Part shown: positions 1,109 through 35,004 of the stretch, in pieces
How the letters are laid out: each line of letters opens with the position of its first letter
Numbering within the stretch: position 1 is the first letter of the stretch
Virus genome (UHGV): UHGV-0312038
Length of the DNA stretch: 63,686 nucleotides
Direction: 5' to 3' (one strand)
Source of the DNA: a virus
The notes under the pieces: generated by a model
The model's input: the letters and a program-made list of their open reading frames with translations, nothing else
The model's database searches: none
Told to the model about the DNA's origin: nothing
Translations under genes and position numbers: made by a program

Positions 1109-1554
1109 ACAAACTCTGGCAGAAGAACAATCACACTATGTACTCCAGTGTTTTCAATGTGCCTGCCGGTTACTGCGTCACATTGTTTGCTACTGGTCTG
1201 CTGGATGAGAAAGTCAGGCAGTCAGCTGAGGAGTTTACTGTACCGCAGATTGTGTGTGTAAGACGCATGGTTCATGAATATGAAAAGGCACAGACAATTC
1301 CATGCGAGGGGTGCTGTGGTTACATTTTCGACCTTGCTAATGTAAGGGCTGATACAATTAACGATGAACTTGTTTCAACCTGTGGCCGTCCGTGGCAGCT
1401 TGACCCCTGTCGTAATATTGGCATAATTGGTGTACCGGGTACATATAGACTGCATATCAATGACGCAACGGCAGTTGGTGTAGCTCAGGTATATGCGGAT
1501 TGGTACAGAGCCAGTCAGATTCCCTCACAGGTTGAAAGCCTGTTCTTTATTTAG
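1105..1554 (+). CDS. hypothetical protein (head module)
   Basis: 149-aa ORF. Start overlaps the previous stop (ATGA). Confidence 0.5.
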   Translation: MNKLWQKNNHTMYSSVFNVPAGYCVTLFATGLLDEKVRQSAEEFTVPQIVCVRRMVHEYEKAQTIPCEGCCGYIFDLANVRADTINDELVSTCGRPWQLDPCRNIGIIGVPGTYRLHINDATAVGVAQVYADWYRASQIPSQVESLFFI

Positions 1555-1565
1555 GAGATATATAT

Positions 1566-1940
1566 ATGGGTAACGCTTGTGGTGAAACGAAATACGCCGA
1601 AGACGGCGTTATTAACAGAACTACACTGACCAATTCGCAGGTCACTAATTCTGATATACAGAACTCTACGCTGACTGCCTGTACCATCAAAGAGCTTACA
1701 GCTATTGATGATGCTTCTGCTGAGAAAATAGCTGACGCTATTTCCGGGCTGGACAGCAAACAGCTTCTGAGTCTTGCGTCCGCTATACAGGATGCCTTTG
1801 CTCCTGTTGAAGGAGACGAGCCGGATTCCATTTCCGGGCCGGAAGTGCCCACTACTATTATTGGGCTTAGGGACGCCCTGCTTGGCAGGCCGTCCGGCTG
1901 GGGCCGGTTTGGCTCGTATGTTGTACCGCTGTATAAGTAG
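1566..1940 (+). CDS. hypothetical protein
   Basis: 124-aa ORF. AGGAG ribosome-binding site 7 nt upstream. Confidence 0.5.
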   Translation: MGNACGETKYAEDGVINRTTLTNSQVTNSDIQNSTLTACTIKELTAIDDASAEKIADAISGLDSKQLLSLASAIQDAFAPVEGDEPDSISGPEVPTTIIGLRDALLGRPSGWGRFGSYVVPLYK

Positions 1941-2133
1941 GAGTAATAATCATGGCAGTTAAGGAGAGGAAGAATGGCAAAGTATCAGAAACCGAAAGTA
2001 AGCGGGGCGAAAAAGTCTCTCCCTCCGTTTATGAAGGGAAAGAAAAGCCAGCTGAAAAAGTCGAAAAAGTAACCAGACACAATCATATGCGTTCTATCCT
2101 TAAACAATATTACAACTATTAGGTTATTACGCT

Positions 2134-2358
2134 ATGTCTGTTATAATCGACCTTTCGGCAAACAGGAATTATGAGGCGAAAATCGCCGACCCGAAGATGA
2201 CTCTTCAGAACAATCCGCTGGCTCAGCCAGCTGACCCCATGCGGGGCATCAAGGATTATAATTTCGACCGTCTTATGAAAGACGCCAGGCTTCGTTCGTG
2301 TCCGGTACGGGGTAAAGAATACTCCGCTATTATGGATACGAGATACAAGGGAGAATAG
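2134..2358 (+). CDS. hypothetical small protein
   Basis: 74-aa ORF. Confidence 0.4.
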   Translation: MSVIIDLSANRNYEAKIADPKMTLQNNPLAQPADPMRGIKDYNFDRLMKDARLRSCPVRGKEYSAIMDTRYKGE

Positions 2359-2361
2359 TTA

Positions 2362-2520
2362 TGGCTTGTTCCCGTTGCGGTGGAAACCGCGTCACCCGTC
2401 AGACTCCGCCCCCATCTGTTACTTCCCGTCCCGGTACTGTGGCCCCCAATCCCGGACGCAAAACGGCGAAGGAAATTATCACAGGTGTGAAGTATGTTCC
2501 TACCCGAGGCGGAAAATAGT
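2362..2520 (+). CDS. small CxxC (zinc-ribbon-like) protein, 52 aa
   Basis: Below the track cutoff. ATG with AAGGGAGAA ribosome-binding site. Sequence MACSRCGG... The overlapping 93-aa ORF 2366..2647 is R/S-rich junk. Confidence 0.3.
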
Positions 2521-2739
2521 CCTATCCGTGAGCTTGCCCGTCAGCTCAAGTCAGACGCGTATCTCAAGGAAACGCTCCTTGCGTTCCTTGCGCATATTCG
2601 TGAGGGACTGGAGGCGGATTTCGTCCTTGCCGCAAAGACTGGCGTGATGCACCCGGATAAACTGCAAAACGCCGCCATGCAACTTGGCAGGGTTGACGAG
2701 GTTAGATCCTTGGAAGAAATGATTTACGGTATGGAATAA
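2494..2739 (+). CDS. hypothetical protein
   Basis: 81-aa ORF. Confidence 0.4.
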   Translation: MFLPEAENSPIRELARQLKSDAYLKETLLAFLAHIREGLEADFVLAAKTGVMHPDKLQNAAMQLGRVDEVRSLEEMIYGME

Positions 2740-2751
2740 TAAGGAGCGTTT

Positions 2752-3732
2752 ATGTCAGGATTCGGCAAAGTACCCACTAATCCCTATCAGGAAAGGGCCG
2801 AAGCATTCAGAAAACAGAATGAGCCGGGTGGAACCAATCCTCCGACCCAGACGACAGACCAGCAGACCGCCCCCGCGCAGCCCGCGGGTGTCCAGCCTGC
2901 CCCTGTACAGCAGCCGGTTAATCCCCCGTCTGCCCCTGTACAGCAGCCTGCCCCTGTACAGCCTGTAGCTACTCAGCCTCAGAATGCCGGCACTTACTAT
3001 GACCCTGCTCTTATCCAGAATCTGGCATATGAGCGTGACCAGCTCAGACAGCAGCTTGCCGCTGACCAGCAGAAGATGTCAGACCTTCAGAAGTCTGCTG
3101 ATGAGCTTAACGACCTCAGACGCAGGGCCAGTATCAGGGCTGACATCCAGCAGCAGGCCATTGACAATCTGGAGTCTGTGAGCCCTGAGGATTACACGGC
3201 TATTGTTGAATCCGCTACCAATCTGGCCATGGCTCAGACAGAGCCGCTCAAGAAAGAGCTTGAACAGCAGAGGAAAGAGCTTGAGGAGCGTACCCGGTAT
3301 AATCAGCAGATGCTCGAGAATACCCGCAAGGACCTTCTCAACGCCCGTATCTTTGCCGCTCATCCCGACTTTGCCCAGATGGTCAACACTCCCGAGTACC
3401 GGAACTTTATGGCCCAGCGTGACGGTCTCAGCTCTGAAACCCGAGACGCCCGTGCCAGCCGGGAATACCTCAACGGCAATACTGACTACGTTATCGACCT
3501 CCTGAACCAATTCAAGCAGAGTCGTAACAATGCCGTAGGTGTTGCTACTGTACCCCCCGTGCAGGTGGCTCCCGGTGCCGCACCTGCGGCGGCGCAGACT
3601 ACTCCAACCCGCTACACCCTGCGGGAACTCAACAACCTGTTTCAAACGAGGCAGATTTCCGCTGAAGAGTACAGGAAACTTCTTCCTGAAGCCCGCAAGG
3701 CAGCTGTCGAAAGTCTGTCATCCATGTCTTAG
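2752..3732 (+). CDS. putative scaffolding protein
   Basis: 326 aa. Pro/Gln/Val-rich N-terminal linker (PVQQPAPVQ repeats) then a long coiled-coil-like region. Sits directly upstream of the major capsid gene. Confidence 0.5.
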   Translation: MSGFGKVPTNPYQERAEAFRKQNEPGGTNPPTQTTDQQTAPAQPAGVQPAPVQQPVNPPSAPVQQPAPVQPVATQPQNAGTYYDPALIQNLAYERDQLRQQLAADQQKMSDLQKSADELNDLRRRASIRADIQQQAIDNLESVSPEDYTAIVESATNLAMAQTEPLKKELEQQRKELEERTRYNQQMLENTRKDLLNARIFAAHPDFAQMVNTPEYRNFMAQRDGLSSETRDARASREYLNGNTDYVIDLLNQFKQSRNNAVGVATVPPVQVAPGAAPAAAQTTPTRYTLRELNNLFQTRQISAEEYRKLLPEARKAAVESLSSMS

Positions 3733-3743
3733 GAGAATAACTT

Positions 3744-4697
3744 ATGCCTATGTTTCCCAGTGCGTCCGGCTATACCGGAATGGAAGCAACCCCGCTTGCC
3801 CGAATTGGGTACAGCGACATTATCCTTTCCAAAATCTATGAGGAAGACTGGCTTCCCCGTATTACCAACTCTGAGCTCCTTGAGCCTGTTACGCAGTGCA
3901 ACCAGATTATTCAGCTTATGCGCGCTCCGGAAGTCGGGCCTATGCGTTCCTATCAGAAGAACCAGCAGCTTGTTCCCAATACCGTTACTACGGAAGCGCG
4001 CTGTCTTCAGATTTGCTTCGCCTCTTATCAGGATATTAAGTTCGACTCTCTCGATGTTAGACAGGCCTGTGACCGCTGGGCTGCTTACGAAGCGAAGCTC
4101 CTCGAAGCTATCTACCAGTCCTACGTTGACGAACAGAGGCGTTTCGTTCTCGGCCGCATGATGGCTCAGGTTTCCCCTCTTACCTCTCTCAGCGTCGCTG
4201 GCCGTCTCCATGACATCAACCTTGGCGCTCCGGGTAATCCTGTGCATGTCACCCCGCAGAATCTGCCTGTGGTGCTCGCCAATCTCCAGCGTGCCCTGAT
4301 TGAGCAGAAGCGTTGGGTTGACGGTGATATGTTTATTATCGTGCCGCCTATCCTCCGTACCTACCTTGCCATGAGTAATTATGCCAACTCCGAATGGAGC
4401 TGTAAGTGCGGCGGTATTGTCTCCGGTATGTGGGACCATGAGCTCTTTGGCTTCCAGCCCATTGAGTCCATTCATGTTCCGGTTCGCCGTGACGAATCCG
4501 GTGCCCTGTCTTTCTACATTATCGCTGGCAACAAGGACGCTACCGCCTATGCCAGCAATATCATTGAGTCCCGTCTGATTACCAACGACCCGAACAGCTT
4601 TGGTATCCGGTATCAGTTCCTCGCCGCTTGGGGTGCGGAAGTTATCTATCCCGAAGCCCTCGCTATGGGTTATTGGACTTTCGACCCTATTAACTAG
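3744..4697 (+). CDS. major capsid protein (HK97-fold, putative)
   Basis: 317 aa with AGGAGA ribosome-binding site. Lies between the scaffold and further head genes. Size and composition are typical of HK97-like capsid proteins. Confidence 0.6.
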   Translation: MPMFPSASGYTGMEATPLARIGYSDIILSKIYEEDWLPRITNSELLEPVTQCNQIIQLMRAPEVGPMRSYQKNQQLVPNTVTTEARCLQICFASYQDIKFDSLDVRQACDRWAAYEAKLLEAIYQSYVDEQRRFVLGRMMAQVSPLTSLSVAGRLHDINLGAPGNPVHVTPQNLPVVLANLQRALIEQKRWVDGDMFIIVPPILRTYLAMSNYANSEWSCKCGGIVSGMWDHELFGFQPIESIHVPVRRDESGALSFYIIAGNKDATAYASNIIESRLITNDPNSFGIRYQFLAAWGAEVIYPEALAMGYWTFDPIN

Positions 4698-4712
4698 TAG
4701 GAGTAGTGAATT

Positions 4713-5438
4713 ATGGCAGTTATTAATCTTGCCCGTGGCGGTATGCCTGATTTCAAAGGCTGGTTCTGTGATGGCCAGTCTGCGGAATTTACCCCGCCCT
4801 ATGACGCCCCCCATGCGGAGTTTACCCCGCCTTTTGACTCTCATGCTGATGCCGCTATGGGTCAGGGGTTCCTCAACCTCCAGTTCCCGCTGGTTCCGAA
4901 TCTGAATGATACCGTTGGCCACCGCTGGATGCAGAACCTGCTTAAGGGCGTTAAGGCCGTGGGTGATGTGGTTCTGACCAACTGGGTTCCCCAGCGTGCT
5001 TATCTGGACTCCGTGTATTACGAAGTCACTAAAACCGATGCTTCTCTCAATGGTGTGTATCTCGCTCCCGTTGCGAAACGCGCTGTCTGGAACTTCACTA
5101 CCGAGGAGTGGGAATACCAGGACGTGGCTGAGTTTACTAATGCCATGACCACGGCTAAGATTACTCAGTTCCCTGTCGGTACTCCGCAGGACGGCGATAA
5201 GCTGTACGGGTTTACCCGTCTGACGGATCCGCTTGCTACCTTCGGCCACAATATTGTCAAGCGTGATGCTACCGGAAAGCCCACCGCTGGTTATGATGAC
5301 TTTTTCGGTACTGTCCTGCTTGGTTTTGAGGTTGCCGCTGGCGACACTGCCAAGATTGCCACCCTGTGGAAGTCCACGTTTGCCCTGTACTTCTCTTCCA
5401 AGCTGCTGGCTTTTGAGGGCAGTACTCAGATTGGCTAA
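4713..5438 (+). CDS. head-associated hypothetical protein
   Basis: 241-aa ORF. Confidence 0.5.
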   Translation: MAVINLARGGMPDFKGWFCDGQSAEFTPPYDAPHAEFTPPFDSHADAAMGQGFLNLQFPLVPNLNDTVGHRWMQNLLKGVKAVGDVVLTNWVPQRAYLDSVYYEVTKTDASLNGVYLAPVAKRAVWNFTTEEWEYQDVAEFTNAMTTAKITQFPVGTPQDGDKLYGFTRLTDPLATFGHNIVKRDATGKPTAGYDDFFGTVLLGFEVAAGDTAKIATLWKSTFALYFSSKLLAFEGSTQIG

Positions 5439-5449
5439 GGGGGTTTGTT

Positions 5450-5683
5450 ATGGCGCGTACTTATACGGGCCCGGCTTCCAAAGATACCGTGAAAGGCGGG
5501 AAGAAATTCCCACTTAAGAAGGTTGGAAGCGACCACAGTATTGACCTGACCATGACCAACGGTACTGACAAGGCGCGTGGTATTATTATGCGCACCAAGT
5601 GGAGTCAGGGCGTCCATGGTGGTTTCACTCCTGCCACGGAGAAGTCTGTCAAGGGACAGAGGCCCAGTTCCGTGGCGAAGTAG
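5450..5683 (+). CDS. hypothetical small protein
   Basis: 77-aa ORF. Confidence 0.4.
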   Translation: MARTYTGPASKDTVKGGKKFPLKKVGSDHSIDLTMTNGTDKARGIIMRTKWSQGVHGGFTPATEKSVKGQRPSSVAK

Positions 5684-5705
5684 TATATAATAAGGAGCGG
5701 TAGTC

Positions 5706-6173
5706 ATGAATCAGAACGCAACTACAGTTGGGAATCAGGACGTTTCCACTGTGTTCAATCTCAATTCCGAAGAACGGGCCGGTTTTCTTGAACATCTCGG
5801 GGTTAAGAACGCCACACCTCCGCTGGCGCATTCTCCCTGTCTGAAGAACAAGAAGACCGGCATTATCCTCCCGTGGAACCCGATGCTTGCAGAGCAGAGG
5901 GATATACTGGAATGCTGTGATGAGCAGGGCAATACTGACCCTGCGGCATGGCAGGACAAAGTACAGGAAGACAGTTCCGAGGATGAAAGGGAACTCATGG
6001 CTGCCGCCCTTAATGAGGCTACATCCCGTCAGAATAAGATTGCGCAGGAAAAGATGAGCTCGTTTCGTTCTACTATGAAGAAGATGGACCAGCCTGAGCA
6101 ATCCGACCAGTACGGGGACGAAGCTGTGCCTTATGAAGATATTGAGAAACTGATGTCGAAAGCGGAGTTCTGA
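5706..6173 (+). CDS. acidic hypothetical protein
   Basis: 155 aa, strongly D/E-rich C-terminal half. Confidence 0.45.
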   Translation: MNQNATTVGNQDVSTVFNLNSEERAGFLEHLGVKNATPPLAHSPCLKNKKTGIILPWNPMLAEQRDILECCDEQGNTDPAAWQDKVQEDSSEDERELMAAALNEATSRQNKIAQEKMSSFRSTMKKMDQPEQSDQYGDEAVPYEDIEKLMSKAEF

Positions 6174-29055: not shown

Positions 29056-29301
29056 TTACTTAAAGTTTAAACAGAAATACTCCACAGCCCAAGCGATAAA
29101 GTCCTCCTTCTTGTAGCAGACCTTCCTTCCTACCTTTACTATAGGGGGGCCCATTTTCTTGAAGTCAAGATTAGTCATAGTCCTGTAGCTGATAATCCCA
29201 TTAGTCAGCTCCTTGATACTGGCACGGGGGAAAAGAGGCGGTAGGTTTTTCTCAAGAAATTCCTTCAACTCTTTTCCTGAGTCTTTAGCTGTTGTGCTCA
29301 T
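29056..29301 (-). CDS. AlpA/Xis-like helix-turn-helix DNA-binding protein
   Basis: 81 aa. The SIKELTNGIISYRTMTNLDFKKMGPPIVKVGRKVCYKKEDFIAW pattern resembles the AlpA family (...stiyrl...gkfP.pvklg.r.v.W...dv..W). Confidence 0.45.
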   Translation of the reverse strand: MSTTAKDSGKELKEFLEKNLPPLFPRASIKELTNGIISYRTMTNLDFKKMGPPIVKVGRKVCYKKEDFIAWAVEYFCLNFK

Positions 29302-30904
29302 TCTTCAACTCCTCAAATAGTGTAGATACTGTTTGCCCTAGTTCTTTACCTTCGTCAAGACTTTTGAAAGATTTTTCTTCCTCCGGAGAGGATAAAATCC
29401 GGATGACTGAAATCTTCGGCGCCTTCTGTTTGGCAGAGCTCAGGCGTTCAAGCGCCTGTGCATAGATGAACCCGCCCAGCATCGGCGGCCCGTTGAAAAT
29501 CATGGTGTCAGCGGCGGAAAGTTCCACGCCGAAAGCTGTTGTCGTAGGATGACATATCAGTATCCTAGGGTCAGATGCGTACTGAAAGTTGTGCAGAAGC
29601 TCGGCCCTGCTCTTCGCCGACACACCGCCATCTATGATACCCACGGAGAACCCGGCGTTCCTCAGCTCTTCCGCTAACAGGTGGTTTGAAAATACAAAGA
29701 CCCCAAAGATAACAACCTTATGGCTTGTCTCATTGATGCAGTCGATTATTGTGTCAGTACGCTGTTTGTGCTGTAACGGTACAGGCATGCCGTCTATCGT
29801 CACAAATCCCTGTGCCATCTGCATCATCTTCTGGAAAAGCACGCCGCCGTTCGCCGCTGTAATTGTAGCGCCGCTGTCCAGTATAGCCACAGCCTCGGCC
29901 TTCAGGTCATCATGGACTTTCTTCTGCTCGGCGCTCATGGAGCATCGGCGGGTCTGAGTGACAACAGGCGGCAGGTCAATAACACTGGACTTCGCGAACC
30001 GTATCGCCGGTTGCAGTGTCTCATATATACGGGACGCGGCATTGGGAGACGGCTTCCGCATGAAAGGTTCAGGCCCATACTGATATGTCACAAGGTCAAG
30101 CCAGCCCGTTTTAGTACGACATGGCAGCCTACTCCGGTTAATCATCCGTGCCATACCATATACAGCCTCAGGATTGTCAGCGGGGGAACCTGTAACTCCT
30201 ACCGCATACCGGAGGTTCAGCTTGTTAACAATGTTGTCCAAAGCTTTGAAACGCTGACTTGATGAATTGCCTACATGGGTCAGCTCGTCAATGACAATAC
30301 CGCCGATGCGTTTCTCCAGTACTGCCTTTGTAAACGCTTTCCCTGAAATCCTGATACTGTCATAGTTAGTGATATAGAAATCAGCCGGCGTCTCCAAAGC
30401 ATGTTCTCTTCCTTTGCCATGCACTCTGACAATCCGCGCGCCCGGAAGAGTCTGCTCAATACTGTCTATCCACACACTGTCTATTGTTGTTACAGTAGTG
30501 ACAATGAGAAACCCGCCTGTTACCTCAGCGTGCCGTTGGAGATAGTCCATAGCCAGAATCAGACTTCCGGTCTTTCCTGTACGGGGGTCTGACAGAACGT
30601 AGCACCTCGGGTGAAGAGTAATGAACGAAGCAGTCTTCAGCTGATGCTTCATCGGGTTGTACCGGCCCTCGATTAGTGGGTGTCTGTCAGACACGAAAGG
30701 CGTAATGTCAGTAACATCAGCACCGAGATTAGCGGCTATCATACAGCCGTCACCGGTATGGGGGACAGCGAAAAGCGTCTTGTCAGTATAATCTTTATAA
30801 ACGATACCCGGTACTGACTTGCCGGTCTTTATTATTTTTGGGTCACTGACTCCCAGATATATCCAGTTGTCATCACTAAGAACTGTTATATCAGACGTCT
30901 CCAT
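29285..30904 (-). CDS. SNF2-family (SF2, DExH) helicase
   Basis: Walker A DPRTGKTGS and DExH box VIDELTH. C-terminal helicase domain. 539 aa. Confidence 0.75.
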   Translation of the reverse strand: METSDITVLSDDNWIYLGVSDPKIIKTGKSVPGIVYKDYTDKTLFAVPHTGDGCMIAANLGADVTDITPFVSDRHPLIEGRYNPMKHQLKTASFITLHPRCYVLSDPRTGKTGSLILAMDYLQRHAEVTGGFLIVTTVTTIDSVWIDSIEQTLPGARIVRVHGKGREHALETPADFYITNYDSIRISGKAFTKAVLEKRIGGIVIDELTHVGNSSSQRFKALDNIVNKLNLRYAVGVTGSPADNPEAVYGMARMINRSRLPCRTKTGWLDLVTYQYGPEPFMRKPSPNAASRIYETLQPAIRFAKSSVIDLPPVVTQTRRCSMSAEQKKVHDDLKAEAVAILDSGATITAANGGVLFQKMMQMAQGFVTIDGMPVPLQHKQRTDTIIDCINETSHKVVIFGVFVFSNHLLAEELRNAGFSVGIIDGGVSAKSRAELLHNFQYASDPRILICHPTTTAFGVELSAADTMIFNGPPMLGGFIYAQALERLSSAKQKAPKISVIRILSSPEEEKSFKSLDEGKELGQTVSTLFEELKNEHNS

Positions 30905-31202
30905 GCTCTACCTCTTTCAGTATATTGTCCAGCTCACCAAGGTTATGCTCGTTAATGACAAGCACAAACGCTCCGGCGGAGCGCATCCGGCTATGCTCTA
31001 ATGACTGCAAAGCCGTTGGCTTGTTAGTCCCTGCCTTGGCTTCTATCCCAATTAATCTGCCATGGAGACAGGCGATATAATCAGGGATCCCAGACCGGCC
31101 AAAGGTTGTACCGCGCGGCATGAAGTACCATACGTTGTGGGCCTTAAGCCACGCGGTAATCTTCTGCTTCACTCGTCCCTCAGGGGTCATTTCAGTCCGC
31201 AC
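30891..31202 (-). CDS. VRR-NUC domain nuclease
   Basis: GIPDYIACLHGRLIGIEAKAGTNKPTALQ matches the VRR-NUC PD-(D/E)xK core. Adjacent to the SNF2 helicase, as is common. Confidence 0.7.
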   Translation of the reverse strand: MRTEMTPEGRVKQKITAWLKAHNVWYFMPRGTTFGRSGIPDYIACLHGRLIGIEAKAGTNKPTALQSLEHSRMRSAGAFVLVINEHNLGELDNILKEVEHGDV

Positions 31203-31861
31203 TCCGTCTTGCCATTGAAATCACAGAAGCGGCAGAACCTGTTCCTGACTGGCAAGAAGCAGTTATCCCGTATGGCAGCTTTCATATCCCTCATGGTATC
31301 AACCACATCCTGTACAGGAAGAAGTCCACGGGACATATCAACGACACCCTCGACACGCTCCCCAATATCAACATACTCATATGAGTACCTGATGACATTC
31401 TTCCCATAAATGAGATGCACAAGCAGGGCTTCAACCCGAAGCTGGAAGTCTTCCGTATCCCATTTCTTCCCCGTCTTAATGTCAATAAGCCACGGGTCTC
31501 CCTCATCAGGAATGATAAGCGTGTCTGCCTTTGCCCTGAGAAGAGCATGGGCATCCCACCAGTCAGTGGACGGCTTGAACTTGTCCGTAACGACAAGCTC
31601 TTTCTCTATGAAGAGCTCGCCTTTTATGCTTCTCACTGTGTCAATAAGACCAGATACATAAGCGGTATCAAGTTTGTCATCCCAGTGCGCCACAGCCTGA
31701 TGACCTTTACGGAAAGCCTTTTCAATATCCCCATGGACCATTGTACCACGGGACTTCTGAGTACTTGCCTTCCACTTGATTTCTTTCGTGATGGACTGTG
31801 CCTGAAACCTGCGGGGGCAGGTACGGAACGAGATCATGTTACTTGGGGAAAAAACAAACAT
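31187..31861 (-). CDS. Cas4/RecB-like PD-(D/E)xK exonuclease with 4-Cys cluster
   Basis: N-terminal Cys (RTCPRRF), core IDIKTGK, and C-terminal CFLPVRNRFCRFCDFNGKTEC. Confidence 0.65.
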   Translation of the reverse strand: MFVFSPSNMISFRTCPRRFQAQSITKEIKWKASTQKSRGTMVHGDIEKAFRKGHQAVAHWDDKLDTAYVSGLIDTVRSIKGELFIEKELVVTDKFKPSTDWWDAHALLRAKADTLIIPDEGDPWLIDIKTGKKWDTEDFQLRVEALLVHLIYGKNVIRYSYEYVDIGERVEGVVDMSRGLLPVQDVVDTMRDMKAAIRDNCFLPVRNRFCRFCDFNGKTECGLK

Positions 31862-31869
31862 CTTGCCTC

Positions 31870-34800
31870 CTAAGCTATGCAGTAATCCTTCCCTATCTCA
31901 GCTTCACATGCGACGGGAAAATCCCCCAGCCAATCCGGTACACTGGACATACAGGACTCCATTACGGACTTCGTATGCTCTGCTTCGTCTTCCGGACAAA
32001 TGGCAAGGAATGAGTCGTGGATATTGGCGATAAGCCGTATCCCCTGTTCTGTCATACGACAAGCCTGCCATTGCAGCAAGGCAAAAGCAAGATACTGACA
32101 CAGATTTTCCGCAAGCGCCCCGCCGTATATCTTTGTCTTCAGCTCCGACTTCCCCTTCACTCTGGTATAATAATACTCCTCCCTGTTGTTCTTCTCAGAC
32201 ACCTCACAGGAAAGTTTGAAATACCTCAGAGTATAATTATTCGGTCCAATGATAGTAGGTACATCGTCCCTCCCGCATATAGGGGCTACGCTGTACTGGA
32301 AGATATTATCATTGGGGCCGCCGAACTCTCCGGAGTACCCAAGGTACATCGCCTTAATGACCGTCTGACACGTATCCCAGAAAGCCACGATGTTCGGATT
32401 ACTGGCACGGTAAACATTGTGAGCATGATGGGCCATCTCATAATGCTGGTCAATGTCACTGCTCAGACGCACACCCTGACGGAGCAAAGTATCCGCGTAC
32501 TTCCTCCAACTAACACCATAGCCGCAATTATGAACTACAAGTGCGCCATGTTTGGTTCGTATGGTAAACCTATGATTCGGCCCCGCATTCAAGAGATCGT
32601 ATACGAGCTCTGAGTTTTTCAACCTCGGCTTGCAGTTCACTGACACGCCGCCTATTGTAGTTATTCTGAGACTTTGTAACAAACCGGAGATTACCCACTT
32701 CGTAGTTGCCATTATTGTCGATACGGTCAAGGTCGAAGTCCGGATTATCCCAGCCATCCAGTGATACAAGGTAGGCAAGAAACGCTCTACGGTCAGCAAA
32801 CTTGCATTGGATTCCACGCCCCCCGTAGTCTTTATATCTTCTACAGTGGGGGTTGTTACAACGCTGCTCAACAGCGGCAATTCTATTGAGCAAGCGTCTC
32901 CTGTGCGCAGGTTCCGGGCAAACGTCCGCGTAAGAGGAGTATAACTTAACATAGCTTTGTGATGACTTCTTCTTGGCGCAGGTGTTACACCGTGTAGTCC
33001 GTCCATTGTGGAGGTTGCTGAACAAGACCCAGTATGGTTCTGCCCCACAGGAACACTGCACCAGAACCATTCTTTCAATACGTTTCGTACCATGTACTCG
33101 TAATCTTGCGGAACGAATGACAGTGAGCTCACCAATCTTTGCACCCGGCTCATAATCTGCATAACGTGGCCTGAAAAACTTGAGATGGCTGGGGTCCCTA
33201 ACGGAGCAATGCTGGCAGGCATCAGTCGGGATTCTCCGTAAAGAGTAGATGCTAATCCATCGTAAAGCTCCACACTTGGAGCATTCGCATAAGTATCGCC
33301 CCCGTCCCCTATCATCGAACGCCATATCTCTAATGATGCGGCCCCTGTACAGAGTGCCCGGCTCAAGTATGAGCGTGTCTGAACGCACTCGCTTGCCTGC
33401 TTCCATGAAGAACCGCTTAAGATCATATGGTCTGGGGTCATCCTTACTCCATCCACATCTATTGTGTTCTTCTCGCCATTGCATATAAGTCCTTGATGAG
33501 TTACCCATTGTACACCATCCCACAATTTATCATCTTTCGACACCATAACTATGGGCTTCCACCCATTATTTGTCAATACCTCCGTATCACCTGCAAGGCA
33601 GGAAAGAATACCAGTTTTGCCAACGTTCCTGTACGCTTTCAGTTTCTTGTCTCCGGACTTAGCGCCCTTATGAATCTTCTCACTCGGAATCTGGAAAATC
33701 TTTTCAGCAAGGTCAGCGTAAGGGTCAGCCCCTCTCCTGAACGCGTCAACCAGCTCAGTCTCGTTAGCGACATAAGCAAGAATGCGCGCTTCAATCTGGC
33801 TTGAGTCGCAGGCCACAAGAGACATCCCCTCCGGTGCCTGTACTGCTTTCCTCAAAGTAAGCTGACTCGGGTCACGCTTGCTCAGGTTCTGAAGATTGAG
33901 CTTGTCACTGCTCCCCTCGGAGTTGCCAGCCGTATAACGTGACGTGTGAGCCTTGAACGCATTGAGCATAACGGGCATCGCCCTGCCGCTTTTAGCCAGA
34001 GCATGGAACGTCTCAGCCCTTGACCTCTGGATACTGGAGTTGTTCTCCAGTCTCGTCCGGACAAGAAGAGCCACGCACTCATCAGCGTCAGAAGCCATGG
34101 CCACGAAATCCAAATCAGACTTAGCCAGAGCCGGAGTATAAACCGCGTAATCCTCTTCGCTAAGATTAGTCTTCCCCTCGGCTTCCAGCTTTTTCCGCTT
34201 CGTCTCTGACTTCGCCACGCTGTATTTCATCGGCGGCTTGCGCCCGAGAAGCTCAAGCATCTTAACGAAAGAGGCGGAAGAACGAATCGCCTTCAGGAAG
34301 TCCTCATCCGATTTGAACATGAACATCCTGTTAATATCATTACGCGCCTTAGTGACCTTATCTGAAAGCTCGTTCAGGTACGCGGTAAGCATATCATCAT
34401 CAAGCCTGAGTACAGGATTGCATGCCATCTTGGCAGTTATAGAACTGAAGAGCAGGGCATCAGCAGTCACGAAAGGAAGCATGGCTTTAAAGCTCAGGAA
34501 ACATTGCTCCGTATCATTGCGGCAGTACTGGATGAATGCTGTACGTTCGTCAGGCGTGAAATCGTCCGGCCACTTCCGGCCGTCTGAAATCACCGTACCT
34601 TCCACCTTCTCGCCACACTGGAAAAATTTTGCCATGGATTTCAGTGACTCATTCTGGATTCGTGATACCCCTGTCCACCGTTCCATGCACATGGTATCTA
34701 TAGCAATCCTCGGAACCACATGGTAAATCTCGGAAAGAATAAGGAAGTCAAACCCATTCCCATTGTGGGCAACAGTCACCACGTCCGGGGCATCGAGCTT

Positions 34801-35004
34801 AAGAGCAGCAAGCACGGCGGGGATATTATCGTGTTCCGCTACCCGTACCTTATCGTATGTCATCGTACTGGCATCCGTGACAATATAACTCATGAGCTGA
34901 GCGGAAAACCTGCTGTCCCTGATATATGATATGGGGCCGATTTTTGACAGTGTATAATTTTTACTGTCCCAGTACGTCTCAAAGTCCAGTACAACAATTC
35001 TCAC
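31870..35004 (-). CDS. family-A DNA polymerase with 3'-5' exonuclease domain, interrupted by an intein (precursor 1044 aa)
   Basis: Exo I motif VLDFETY. Motif A LVACDSSQIEARILAY. Motif B KAYRNVGKTGILS / CGYGVSWRKYA split by the intein. Motif C IANIHDS. Confidence 0.8.
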   Translation of the reverse strand: MRIVVLDFETYWDSKNYTLSKIGPISYIRDSRFSAQLMSYIVTDASTMTYDKVRVAEHDNIPAVLAALKLDAPDVVTVAHNGNGFDFLILSEIYHVVPRIAIDTMCMERWTGVSRIQNESLKSMAKFFQCGEKVEGTVISDGRKWPDDFTPDERTAFIQYCRNDTEQCFLSFKAMLPFVTADALLFSSITAKMACNPVLRLDDDMLTAYLNELSDKVTKARNDINRMFMFKSDEDFLKAIRSSASFVKMLELLGRKPPMKYSVAKSETKRKKLEAEGKTNLSEEDYAVYTPALAKSDLDFVAMASDADECVALLVRTRLENNSSIQRSRAETFHALAKSGRAMPVMLNAFKAHTSRYTAGNSEGSSDKLNLQNLSKRDPSQLTLRKAVQAPEGMSLVACDSSQIEARILAYVANETELVDAFRRGADPYADLAEKIFQIPSEKIHKGAKSGDKKLKAYRNVGKTGILSCLAGDTEVLTNNGWKPIVMVSKDDKLWDGVQWVTHQGLICNGEKNTIDVDGVRMTPDHMILSGSSWKQASECVQTRSYLSRALCTGAASLEIWRSMIGDGGDTYANAPSVELYDGLASTLYGESRLMPASIAPLGTPAISSFSGHVMQIMSRVQRLVSSLSFVPQDYEYMVRNVLKEWFWCSVPVGQNHTGSCSATSTMDGLHGVTPAPRRSHHKAMLSYTPLTRTFARNLRTGDACSIELPLLSSVVTTPTVEDIKTTGGVESNASLLTVERFLPTLYHWMAGIIRTSTLTVSTIMATTKWVISGLLQSLRITTIGGVSVNCKPRLKNSELVYDLLNAGPNHRFTIRTKHGALVVHNCGYGVSWRKYADTLLRQGVRLSSDIDQHYEMAHHAHNVYRASNPNIVAFWDTCQTVIKAMYLGYSGEFGGPNDNIFQYSVAPICGRDDVPTIIGPNNYTLRYFKLSCEVSEKNNREEYYYTRVKGKSELKTKIYGGALAENLCQYLAFALLQWQACRMTEQGIRLIANIHDSFLAICPEDEAEHTKSVMESCMSSVPDWLGDFPVACEAEIGKDYCIA
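32527..33600 (-). mobile_element. class-1 intein (358 codons) inserted in polymerase motif B
   Basis: N-terminal CLAGDTEVLT (block A), TPDH (block B). C-terminal VYDLL...ALVVHN followed by +1 Cys. The flanks rejoin into a canonical motif B. Confidence 0.65.
32570..33523 (-). CDS. HNH homing endonuclease encoded out of frame inside the intein
   Basis: 317 aa in a different frame from the polymerase. Several CxxC zinc knuckles and DRIDNNGNYEVGNLRFVTKSQNNYNRR (HNH_3-type signature). Confidence 0.7.
   Translation of the reverse strand: MGWCTMGNSSRTYMQWREEHNRCGWSKDDPRPYDLKRFFMEAGKRVRSDTLILEPGTLYRGRIIRDMAFDDRGRGRYLCECSKCGALRWISIYSLRRIPTDACQHCSVRDPSHLKFFRPRYADYEPGAKIGELTVIRSARLRVHGTKRIERMVLVQCSCGAEPYWVLFSNLHNGRTTRCNTCAKKKSSQSYVKLYSSYADVCPEPAHRRRLLNRIAAVEQRCNNPHCRRYKDYGGRGIQCKFADRRAFLAYLVSLDGWDNPDFDLDRIDNNGNYEVGNLRFVTKSQNNYNRRRVSELQAEVEKLRARIRSLECGAES

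Follow-up and report, generated by a model that had tools for sequence, protein, structure and literature searches.

Can one stretch of phage DNA serve both as the spacer of an intein and, read in another frame, as the gene of a second protein? The question is raised by the DNA polymerase gene of UHGV virus genome UHGV-0312038, a 63,686-nucleotide stretch from an uncultivated source that is called the window here. Its family A DNA polymerase gene (polA) is interrupted in motif B by an insert of 358 codons, and a second open reading frame (ORF) lies nested in the insert in the -1 frame (offset 2). We conclude that, most likely, the insert is a mobile class 1 intein and its homing endonuclease function comes not from an in-frame domain but from another gene that overprints it in the -1 frame. 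All features lie on the minus strand and are given in window coordinates (Table 1). Recomputed coordinates, sequences and frames of the insert and the nested ORF agreed exactly with those of the original prediction, which had been made from the sequence and a list of its ORFs.

Two reading frames and three allele states of one insert

The polymerase ORF matched Pfam DNA_pol_A (E = 3.6e-23) and phrog_17 (E = 1e-51). Its nearest isolate extein, that of Pseudomonas phage phiR18 (63.5 kb genome), is 34% identical, and megablast of the gene against deposited phages gave no match. The insert begins with CLAGDTEV, contains MTPDH and ends in ELVYDLLNAGPNHRFTIRTKHGALVVHN followed by Cys. The block A Cys and the block B TxxH are present, with C11, T65 and H68 invariant in 11 related inteins, and blocks F and G end in VVHN; the following +1 residue is Cys in occupied alleles and Ser in Vibrio phage 97.13. 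The N-terminal splicing domain is conserved in distant relatives. When the flanks are rejoined they read RNVGKTGILS/CGYGVS (a slash marks the insertion site), which aligns with GKTGILS/AGYGVG of empty alleles and with RHVGKTSILG/LGYGMG of phiR18. The rejoined flanks fit R-x3-K-x3-(F/L)-x3-YG, which we take, from E. coli Pol I and T7 gp5, to be the motif B pattern of Pol A.

The AlphaFold model of the insert in the polymerase frame is confident at both ends, with pLDDT (predicted local distance difference test) scores of 87-97 over intein residues 1-70 and 86-91 over residues ~330-358, and falls to 25-45 over residues ~85-327. In a Foldseek search of this model against the PDB, the first 39 matches were all HINT or intein structures (probabilities 0.30-1.00, best E = 7e-4), including the Ssp DnaB, gp41-1, DnaX, NrdJ-1, Npu DnaE and RecA inteins, PI-SceI, Vint and BIL. 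The mini-intein form of the element (see below) also matches the Nanoarchaeum (Neq) Pol split intein by sequence (E = 0.008). Scans of the polymerase-frame insert with Pfam and NCBIfam found no Hint or HNH model match. The profile check of both frames that had been proposed with the original prediction thus gave no Pfam HNH or Hint match, and the HINT similarity of the polymerase-frame flanks was obtained from predicted structure. That a class 1 intein interrupts motif B of Pol A, as had been predicted, is borne out by the HINT-only PDB matches and by the empty-site relatives, which do restore the motif at the junction. The linker had also been described as rich in Ser and Thr; it is enriched, but only moderately (23% vs 13% in the extein).

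Within this insert, the polymerase frame contains no stop codon across the overlap with the nested ORF. When the nested protein was kept fixed and its synonymous codons were permuted, 7.9 +/- 1.8 stops were expected (minimum 2 in 20,000 permutations), so the open polymerase frame is not a matter of chance. The third frame has 37 stops across the insert. The endonuclease-like gene is therefore, as first proposed, a separate ORF in another frame of DNA whose polymerase frame is open. It had been placed inside the linker; in fact it reaches into both splicing domains, overlapping ~55 codons of the N-terminal and ~19 codons of the C-terminal one.

Table 1. Features of the polymerase locus in the window and of the related contig L085 (last five rows, contig coordinates). 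The ratio of non-synonymous to synonymous differences per site is given as pN/pS, Shine-Dalgarno as SD.
Feature	Position	Strand	Remarks
Family A DNA polymerase precursor ORF, uninterrupted across the intein	31870..35004	-	1044 aa, GTG start after GGAGG
N-extein, C-terminal ...YRNVGKTGILS, first half of motif B (O-helix)	33601..35004	-	polymerase-frame pN/pS 0.09
Class 1 intein, 358 codons, polymerase residues 469-826	32527..33600	-	Cys1...TPDH...VYDLLNAGPNHRF...VVHN
Intein N-terminal splicing domain, codons 1-85; nested ORF shares codons 27 onward	33346..33600	-	from pN/pS, pLDDT
Intein linker, codons 86-324; polymerase frame stop-free, protein unconserved, predicted disordered	32629..33345	-	from pN/pS, pLDDT
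Intein C-terminal splicing domain, codons 325-358, blocks F and G	32527..32628	-	polymerase-frame pN/pS 0.00
+1 Cys codon TGC; Ala (GCG or GCT) in empty-site alleles	32524..32526	-	from allele comparison
C-extein, starts CGYGVSWRKY, second half of motif B	31870..32526	-	pN/pS 0.07
Nested ORF, -1 frame, PacI-like His-Me-finger ("HNH-like") endonuclease homologue	32570..33523	-	317 codons from GTG, 312 from ATG 33508
Probable start ATG of nested ORF, CA/A TGG across a conserved intein Trp codon	33506..33508	-	conserved ATGGG
SD-like TGGGATGGTG from intein LWDG codons, ends 4 nt upstream of ATG	33513..33522	-	from anti-SD duplex
First Cys4 zinc-ribbon-like motif CECSKCG...CQHC, aa 79-106	33206..33289	-	only in long, window-type relatives
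Second Cys4 zinc-ribbon motif CSCG...CNTC, aa 157-182	32978..33055	-	family-invariant (C157, C159, C179, C182)
Predicted beta-beta-alpha core FDLDRIDNNGNYEVGNLRFVTKSQNNYNRR, aa 263-292	32648..32737	-	D266, R267, Y274, N278, N290 invariant; R292 nearly
C-terminal helix or coiled coil of nested protein	32588..32644	-	helix 294-312; weak bZIP_2 matches in 14/46 members
Segment deleted in frame in mini-intein L008 (L011, L094 similar)	32631..33269	-	639 nt; AGC microhomology at both breakpoints
PD-(D/E)XK nuclease	31187..31861	-	PDDEXK_1 E = 2.5e-12
103-aa ORF without match	30891..31202	-	
SNF2-type helicase	29285..30904	-	
L085 exonuclease part and N-terminal intein half (IntN)	2109..3386		
L085 same-family endonuclease ORF between split-intein halves, overlapping both	3256..4020		
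L085 C-terminal intein half (IntC) and polymerase	4001..5791		
L085 second, contiguous intein of downstream polymerase gene	aa 237-517		site YGGK/C...HN/CVENxxQA
L085 nested same-family ORF in second intein, +1 frame	4911..5543		

Selection was measured by Nei-Gojobori counts on a gap-free alignment of the window with the three contigs L004-L006. Where the -1 frame is not coding, polymerase-frame pN/pS was low: 0.07-0.09 in the exteins, 0.07 in intein codons 1-25 and 0.00 in codons 325-358 (15 synonymous, 0 non-synonymous differences). It was 0.22 in codons 26-85, with 0.43 in the -1 frame. In codons 86-324, where 177 differences were non-synonymous and 27 synonymous, it rose to 1.77 or was undefined; the -1 frame gave 0.10-0.14 there. 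An independent pair of homologous elements, in phages vB_SenS-Ent1 (Ent1) and SO-1 of Sodalis (82% nucleotide identity), repeated the pattern, with 0.07 in the first intein segment, 0.38 vs 0.40 and 0.93 vs 0.21 in the next two (polymerase vs -1 frame) and 0.05 in the last. The frame under selection therefore switches twice along the insert, and the 5' overlap (~55 codons) is constrained in both frames. The central DNA is selected as protein in the -1 frame, and in the polymerase frame only for lack of stops. The dual-coding selection that had been suspected is confirmed by the absent stops together with the frame-specific pN/pS, and the locus gives a quantified case of phage dual coding, in which ~950 nt act as an open spacer to be spliced out and as a folded protein in the other frame.

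Relatives of the window carry this site in three states. The full element is present in the window and in L004-L006, where the nested proteins are 94-97% identical, the polymerase ORF is uninterrupted and the relative frame is the same. The empty-site allele was found in six contigs, whose exteins are 89-98% identical and read ...YRNVGKTGILS/AGYGVG..., with Ala at +1; the DNA at the site is ...AAAACAGGAATTTTGTCC/GCGGGATACGGC..., and ...GGCAAAACAGGAATTTTGTCCGCGGGATACGGCGTAGGC... in the empty allele of L089. Synonymous differences of the empty alleles are clustered around the insertion site. A mini-intein allele of 145-146 aa occurs in three further contigs (L008, L011 and L094). Nearly all close relatives, of all three allele classes, come from one metagenome, that of L004-L006. 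That near-identical exteins differ in having or lacking the element implies recent mobility. In cultured phages related to Ent1, at least 217 of 380 records keep the spliced junction (600 nt) in one piece (e.g. Jersey, SETP13, and S119 at 96% identity), and in many of the remaining ones it is interrupted. Two of the mini-intein contigs (L008:885-1511 and L011:885-1511) also have a free-standing 209-aa member of the same endonuclease family directly upstream of the polymerase, which shares 37% identity with the core and had no match in Pfam.

Identity and probable translation of the nested protein

The nested protein matched "HNH endonuclease" families in PHROG (phrog_374, E = 8e-36; also 3377, 2081, 4578 and 99) and, weakly, the "endonuclease VII" family phrog_1035 (E = 9e-4). 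In Pfam and NCBIfam no model matched it, nor did any HNH model match among 46 family members, and PDB sequence searches with the protein and with the family profile gave chance-level matches only. One search returned 1092 homologues at E <= 1e-5, and in a library of 1.84 billion proteins the family comprised 120,210 cluster representatives at E <= 1e-3 (70,020 at E <= 1e-10). At 83 family loci inspected, the gene was free-standing or otherwise not nested in 69, nested in a longer same-strand ORF in 14, and in frame in none.

AlphaFold, given 46 homologues, predicted a confident fold for the -1 ORF (mean pLDDT 90.6). The Cys4 ribbon, RC...YGGRGI and the core residues are conserved across these 46 diverse members, in the layout strand-loop-strand-helix. 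The original prediction had read a canonical HNH signature here, which does not hold: the catalytic His of the "DH" motif is absent, its place being taken by an invariant Arg (D266-R267) where HNH_3-type motifs have His, and the label "HNH" is for this reason only loosely right. N278 and N290 are invariant, as expected of the structural or metal-binding Asn, with their placement in the fold taken from motif order only. PacI (3m7k) was the best nuclease match to the model, and no nuclease structure matched strongly. A PacI-like His-Me finger, and thus a putative endonuclease, appears from the model to be the more accurate description, and by analogy the invariant loop residue Tyr274 suggests a His-less, PacI-like variant. 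The C-terminal helix, with its weak bZIP-like matches, is possibly a dimerisation element; the protein ends with LECGAES, which is intein block F read in the -1 frame.

The missing catalytic His, the lack of a strong structural match to a nuclease and the existence of ORF-less mini-intein alleles would also fit a nested ORF that is a decaying relic, or that encodes a DNA-binding protein without nuclease activity, so that the element would survive as a mini-intein carrying a passenger, no longer able to home. We consider this unlikely. The -1 frame is under purifying selection over the entire ORF (in Ent1/SO-1 as well as in the window group), the predicted fold is confident, residues of the predicted beta-beta-alpha core, including the loop Tyr, are invariant in all 46 members, and PacI provides a precedent for a Tyr-dependent enzyme without the His. 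The allele polymorphism among near-identical exteins likewise speaks for recent mobility.

The nested ORF has two candidate start codons. A -1-frame stop lies two codons upstream of GTG 33523, and ATG 33508 lies five codons downstream of this GTG. The sequence TGGGATGGTG before the ATG forms an anti-SD duplex of dG -7.7, which ranks in the top 4.8% when all positions of this mRNA are scored; the SD sequence of the polymerase gene itself gives -9.3. The ATGGG at the start is also found in L007, Ent1, SO-1 and Vibrio phage 97.13, relatives at 39-47% identity, and MG stands at or near the N-terminus in most nested-type homologues of the alignment. The GTG was rejected as the start, having no SD sequence (dG -0.9) and no conservation. 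From the intein start to the conserved part of the nested ORF, there is no slippery heptamer of the form X XXY YYZ. The conserved ATG, its SD-like sequence and the absence of a slippery site favour independent initiation over frameshifting, and translation from ATG 33508 is, on these signals, the best reading.

Programmed -1 ribosomal frameshifting, which had been raised as a possibility, would produce an N-extein-IntN-endonuclease fusion or a fraction of in-frame intein-endonuclease. The nested ORF does lie precisely -1 to the polymerase frame, and in the ENA contig L084 IntN continues straight into the endonuclease frame. Besides the missing heptamer, however, the stop before the GTG closes the -1 frame, the ATG and SD-like sequence are kept at the ORF start in the divergent relatives listed above, the ORF is +1 in other relatives with the same insertion site, and one relative has a separate gene between split intein halves; the polymerase region of L084 is broken into four called ORFs, so that an assembly indel is likelier there. 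Frameshifting is thus very improbable as the source of the endonuclease.

In L084:2131-3117 (ENA ERZ25039473 contig_91067), the N-extein and IntN are in frame with the endonuclease, and IntC and the C-extein follow with a +1 shift. We did not accept this locus (protein P0119) as a natural in-frame variant, given the one-base frame difference and the fragmented polymerase region. Its fusion is probably an assembly indel or, conceivably, a real truncated or split variant.

Phage group I introns often carry HNH genes, and the insert could in principle be such an intron, removed as RNA and carrying a free-standing HNH gene. The GenBank record of SO-1 reads the homologous insert in this way, as a "type I self-splicing intron". 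In the window, an Rfam scan of 32300..33800 found no family at E <= 1, all 358 codons are open where ~8 stops would be expected, and both ends of the insert are under strong purifying selection as protein and are predicted to fold as a HINT domain. Moreover, the residue at +1 is Cys in occupied and Ala in empty alleles, and the natural deletion derivative stays in frame; these are predictions of protein splicing and not of RNA splicing, so the intron note on SO-1 is most likely wrong. The coexistence of empty, mini and full alleles in close relatives rules out a group I intron and equally a sequencing frameshift, and we give the intron hardly any credence. The remaining alternative, that a pair of sequencing or assembly indels displaced an in-frame HNH domain, draws on the uncultivated source of the window and can be dismissed, as it needs two compensating indels, the same frame recurs in L004-L006, in L007 (47% identity), in the finished genomes of Ent1, SO-1 and Vibrio phage 97.13 and in ~160 records of Salmonella and E. 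coli phages, both overlaps are constrained in the two frames, and the domain is in frame at 0/83 loci.

With an intein and an overprinted gene as the preferred reading, the following sequence of events can be proposed. The polymerase mRNA would be translated straight through the insert, the HINT halves (~85 aa N-terminal and ~34 aa C-terminal) would fold around a disordered loop of ~240 residues, and the polymerase would be spliced via Cys1, the terminal Asn and the +1 Cys. Ribosomes would also start separately at ATG 33508, using an SD-like sequence and an ATG that are both formed from the conserved LWDG..W codons of the intein. The predicted product of 312 aa, which would carry two zinc ribbons as well as a PacI-like beta-beta-alpha-metal core and a coiled coil at its C-terminus, would presumably cut intein-free polymerase alleles of co-infecting phages, and repair would then copy the intein into the cut allele together with the endonuclease gene and the +1 Cys. 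Two points weigh against this reading. The SD-like sequence is imperfect, and the anti-SD sequence used may not be that of the host. The selection statistics come from non-independent pairs among four sequences, plus one independent pair.

Family configurations and known systems

Relatives of the nested protein were present in 767 records of a phage collection, the best matches being mostly in Salmonella and Escherichia siphophages. In the best-matching phage records the match lies under the coding sequence annotated "DNA polymerase", and the nested element occurs in ~160 records of sequenced phages of Salmonella and E. coli.

Two further arrangements were found. Three IMG/VR contigs (L019, L021 and L023; host ORFs at ~1250-4300) have an intein at the same motif B position, K..ELA/C...HN/CGYGG, with the endonuclease ORF in the opposite relative frame (host = ORF+2); the frame relationship is therefore not fixed in the element family. 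In contig L085 (Logan ERR2094171), polA is "fractured" over 2109-5791, and a second, contiguous intein in the downstream polymerase gene holds another nested ORF (Table 1). In second-site inteins (P0122-P0137, ~260-287 aa), the polymerase-frame linker looks alike even in distant members (e.g. ASSCEGLHRA.F.LPDG.EV.GD.W); at least in L085, this similarity is probably a shadow of the overlapping endonuclease frame and not a real in-frame domain.

This spread of configurations fits free-standing endonuclease genes that invade mini-inteins. As a tentative extension, which we hold to be possible though somewhat doubtful, one mini-intein family in phage polA would have been colonised repeatedly by one very large family of free-standing, His-less (PacI-like) His-Me-finger endonuclease genes, and every intermediate stage would survive today: a split intein whose halves flank the gene, a +1 overprint, a -1 overprint with start signals in a splicing block, and deletion to a mini-intein. 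If this were true, the view that bifunctional inteins arose by "splicing first, endonuclease later" would become directly testable and a new, Tyr-dependent class of homing endonucleases would be defined. In any case, the full, mini and empty alleles and the other configurations form a natural series for the gain and loss of homing endonucleases by inteins.

The original prediction did not recall this arrangement as having been described, and on this point it was mistaken. Later papers attribute out-of-frame intein endonucleases ("Non-canonical inteins") to Gorbalenya 1998 (PMC147447), preprints of 2025-2026 describe them (bioRxiv 10.1101/2025.01.02.630785 and 10.64898/2026.09.14.751524), and in the GenBank record of SO-1 the nested ORF is annotated already. 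Such endonucleases form a class that has been described but is rarely recognised. The element of the window is an uncultivated member of this class, homologous to a common element of enterobacterial phages, and not a new kind.

A close counterpart is the polymerase intein of Jerseyviruses and related coliphages (Salmonella phage vB_SenS-Ent1, SETP3, SE2; Sodalis phage SO-1; Shigella phage EP23), which is homologous and contains a homologous nested ORF (~44% identity over aa 117-312) in the same -1 frame, in Pol A motif B, with frame-specific selection and polymorphism among close relatives. It differs in being inserted 4 codons upstream (GKA/C...HN/CELGLGYEGG) and in its shorter nested protein (~250 aa), which is without the first zinc-ribbon domain. 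The Ent1 record (L001 2286-3182) gives only an intein "encoding splicing domains", and the SO-1 record (L002 2363-3121) gives the nested ORF as the HNH endonuclease of the putative intron; both annotations miss the overprinted layout. In the library searched, we found no paper that describes the polA motif B element, or that of Jerseyviruses and SO-1, as an overprinted endonuclease. The polymerase intein of many sequenced Salmonella and E. coli phages is thus mis- or under-annotated, being labelled either a plain intein or "group I intron", and hides an endonuclease-like gene of a family with ~120,000 representatives and no Pfam or NCBIfam match.

The cyanobacterial DnaX intein (Gorbalenya 1998, as cited; Phillips et al., bioRxiv 10.64898/2026.09.14.751524) shares the general design. 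It is contiguous, with a centre that is disordered in the host frame, where dN/dS is inflated, and a same-strand overlapping ORF that has a confident fold, is under purifying selection and is preceded by an SD-like sequence; empty, mini and full alleles coexist there too. In contrast, its ORF encodes a LAGLIDADG protein in the +2 frame and it lies in dnaX of cellular genomes, whereas here phage polA motif B holds, in the -1 frame, the ORF of a predicted His-Me-finger (HNH-like) protein, with ORF start signals inside a conserved splicing block. Actinophage inteins resemble the arrangement predicted here in having an endonuclease of the beta-beta-alpha-metal superfamily in "frame 3" and an unstructured host-frame reading, and the survey that reports them proposes that they arose when a free-standing endonuclease gene invaded an intein. 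There, however, the match is to T4 endonuclease VII (1E7D) over 67 residues and HNH endonucleases are reported only in frame; here the protein is a 312-aa, two-zinc-ribbon member of a PacI-like family, in phages related to lineages that infect Gram-negative hosts.

The "fractured genes" of Dassa et al. 2009 (PMC2677866) likewise combine a mini-intein scaffold with a separately translated endonuclease gene, and this exact layout is seen in L085, with the same endonuclease family in polA. The intein of the window differs in being contiguous, its gene is overprinted and not intergenic, and the endonucleases of Dassa et al. are Vsr-like. In ShiLan-type HNH insertions in phage methylases (PMC11855218), an out-of-frame HNH ORF is also hidden in an open host ORF, but there are no splicing domains there, whereas both HINT halves are present and conserved here. 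The PacI restriction endonuclease (His-Me finger group 20; PDB 3m7k) resembles the model of the nested protein, with its predicted beta-beta-alpha-metal core between zinc motifs, and like it lacks the catalytic His and has a loop Tyr; its sequence shows no detectable similarity to the nested protein, and it acts in restriction and not in homing. What stays of interest in the window are the start signals in a splicing block, the His-less PacI-like family, and the coexisting allele states and configurations.

Genes downstream of the polymerase

A replication and recombination module follows the polymerase gene on the same strand (29285-31861; Table 1), and its gene order is the same in L085 and L086. 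In two of the contigs with the full element (L004:5638-6474 and L005:5638-6474), an extra 279-aa ORF (MPKKGTRISRL...), with only a weak helix-turn-helix match, lies between the PD-(D/E)XK gene and the helicase. This ORF is absent from the window and from L006, and it may be another mobile insertion.

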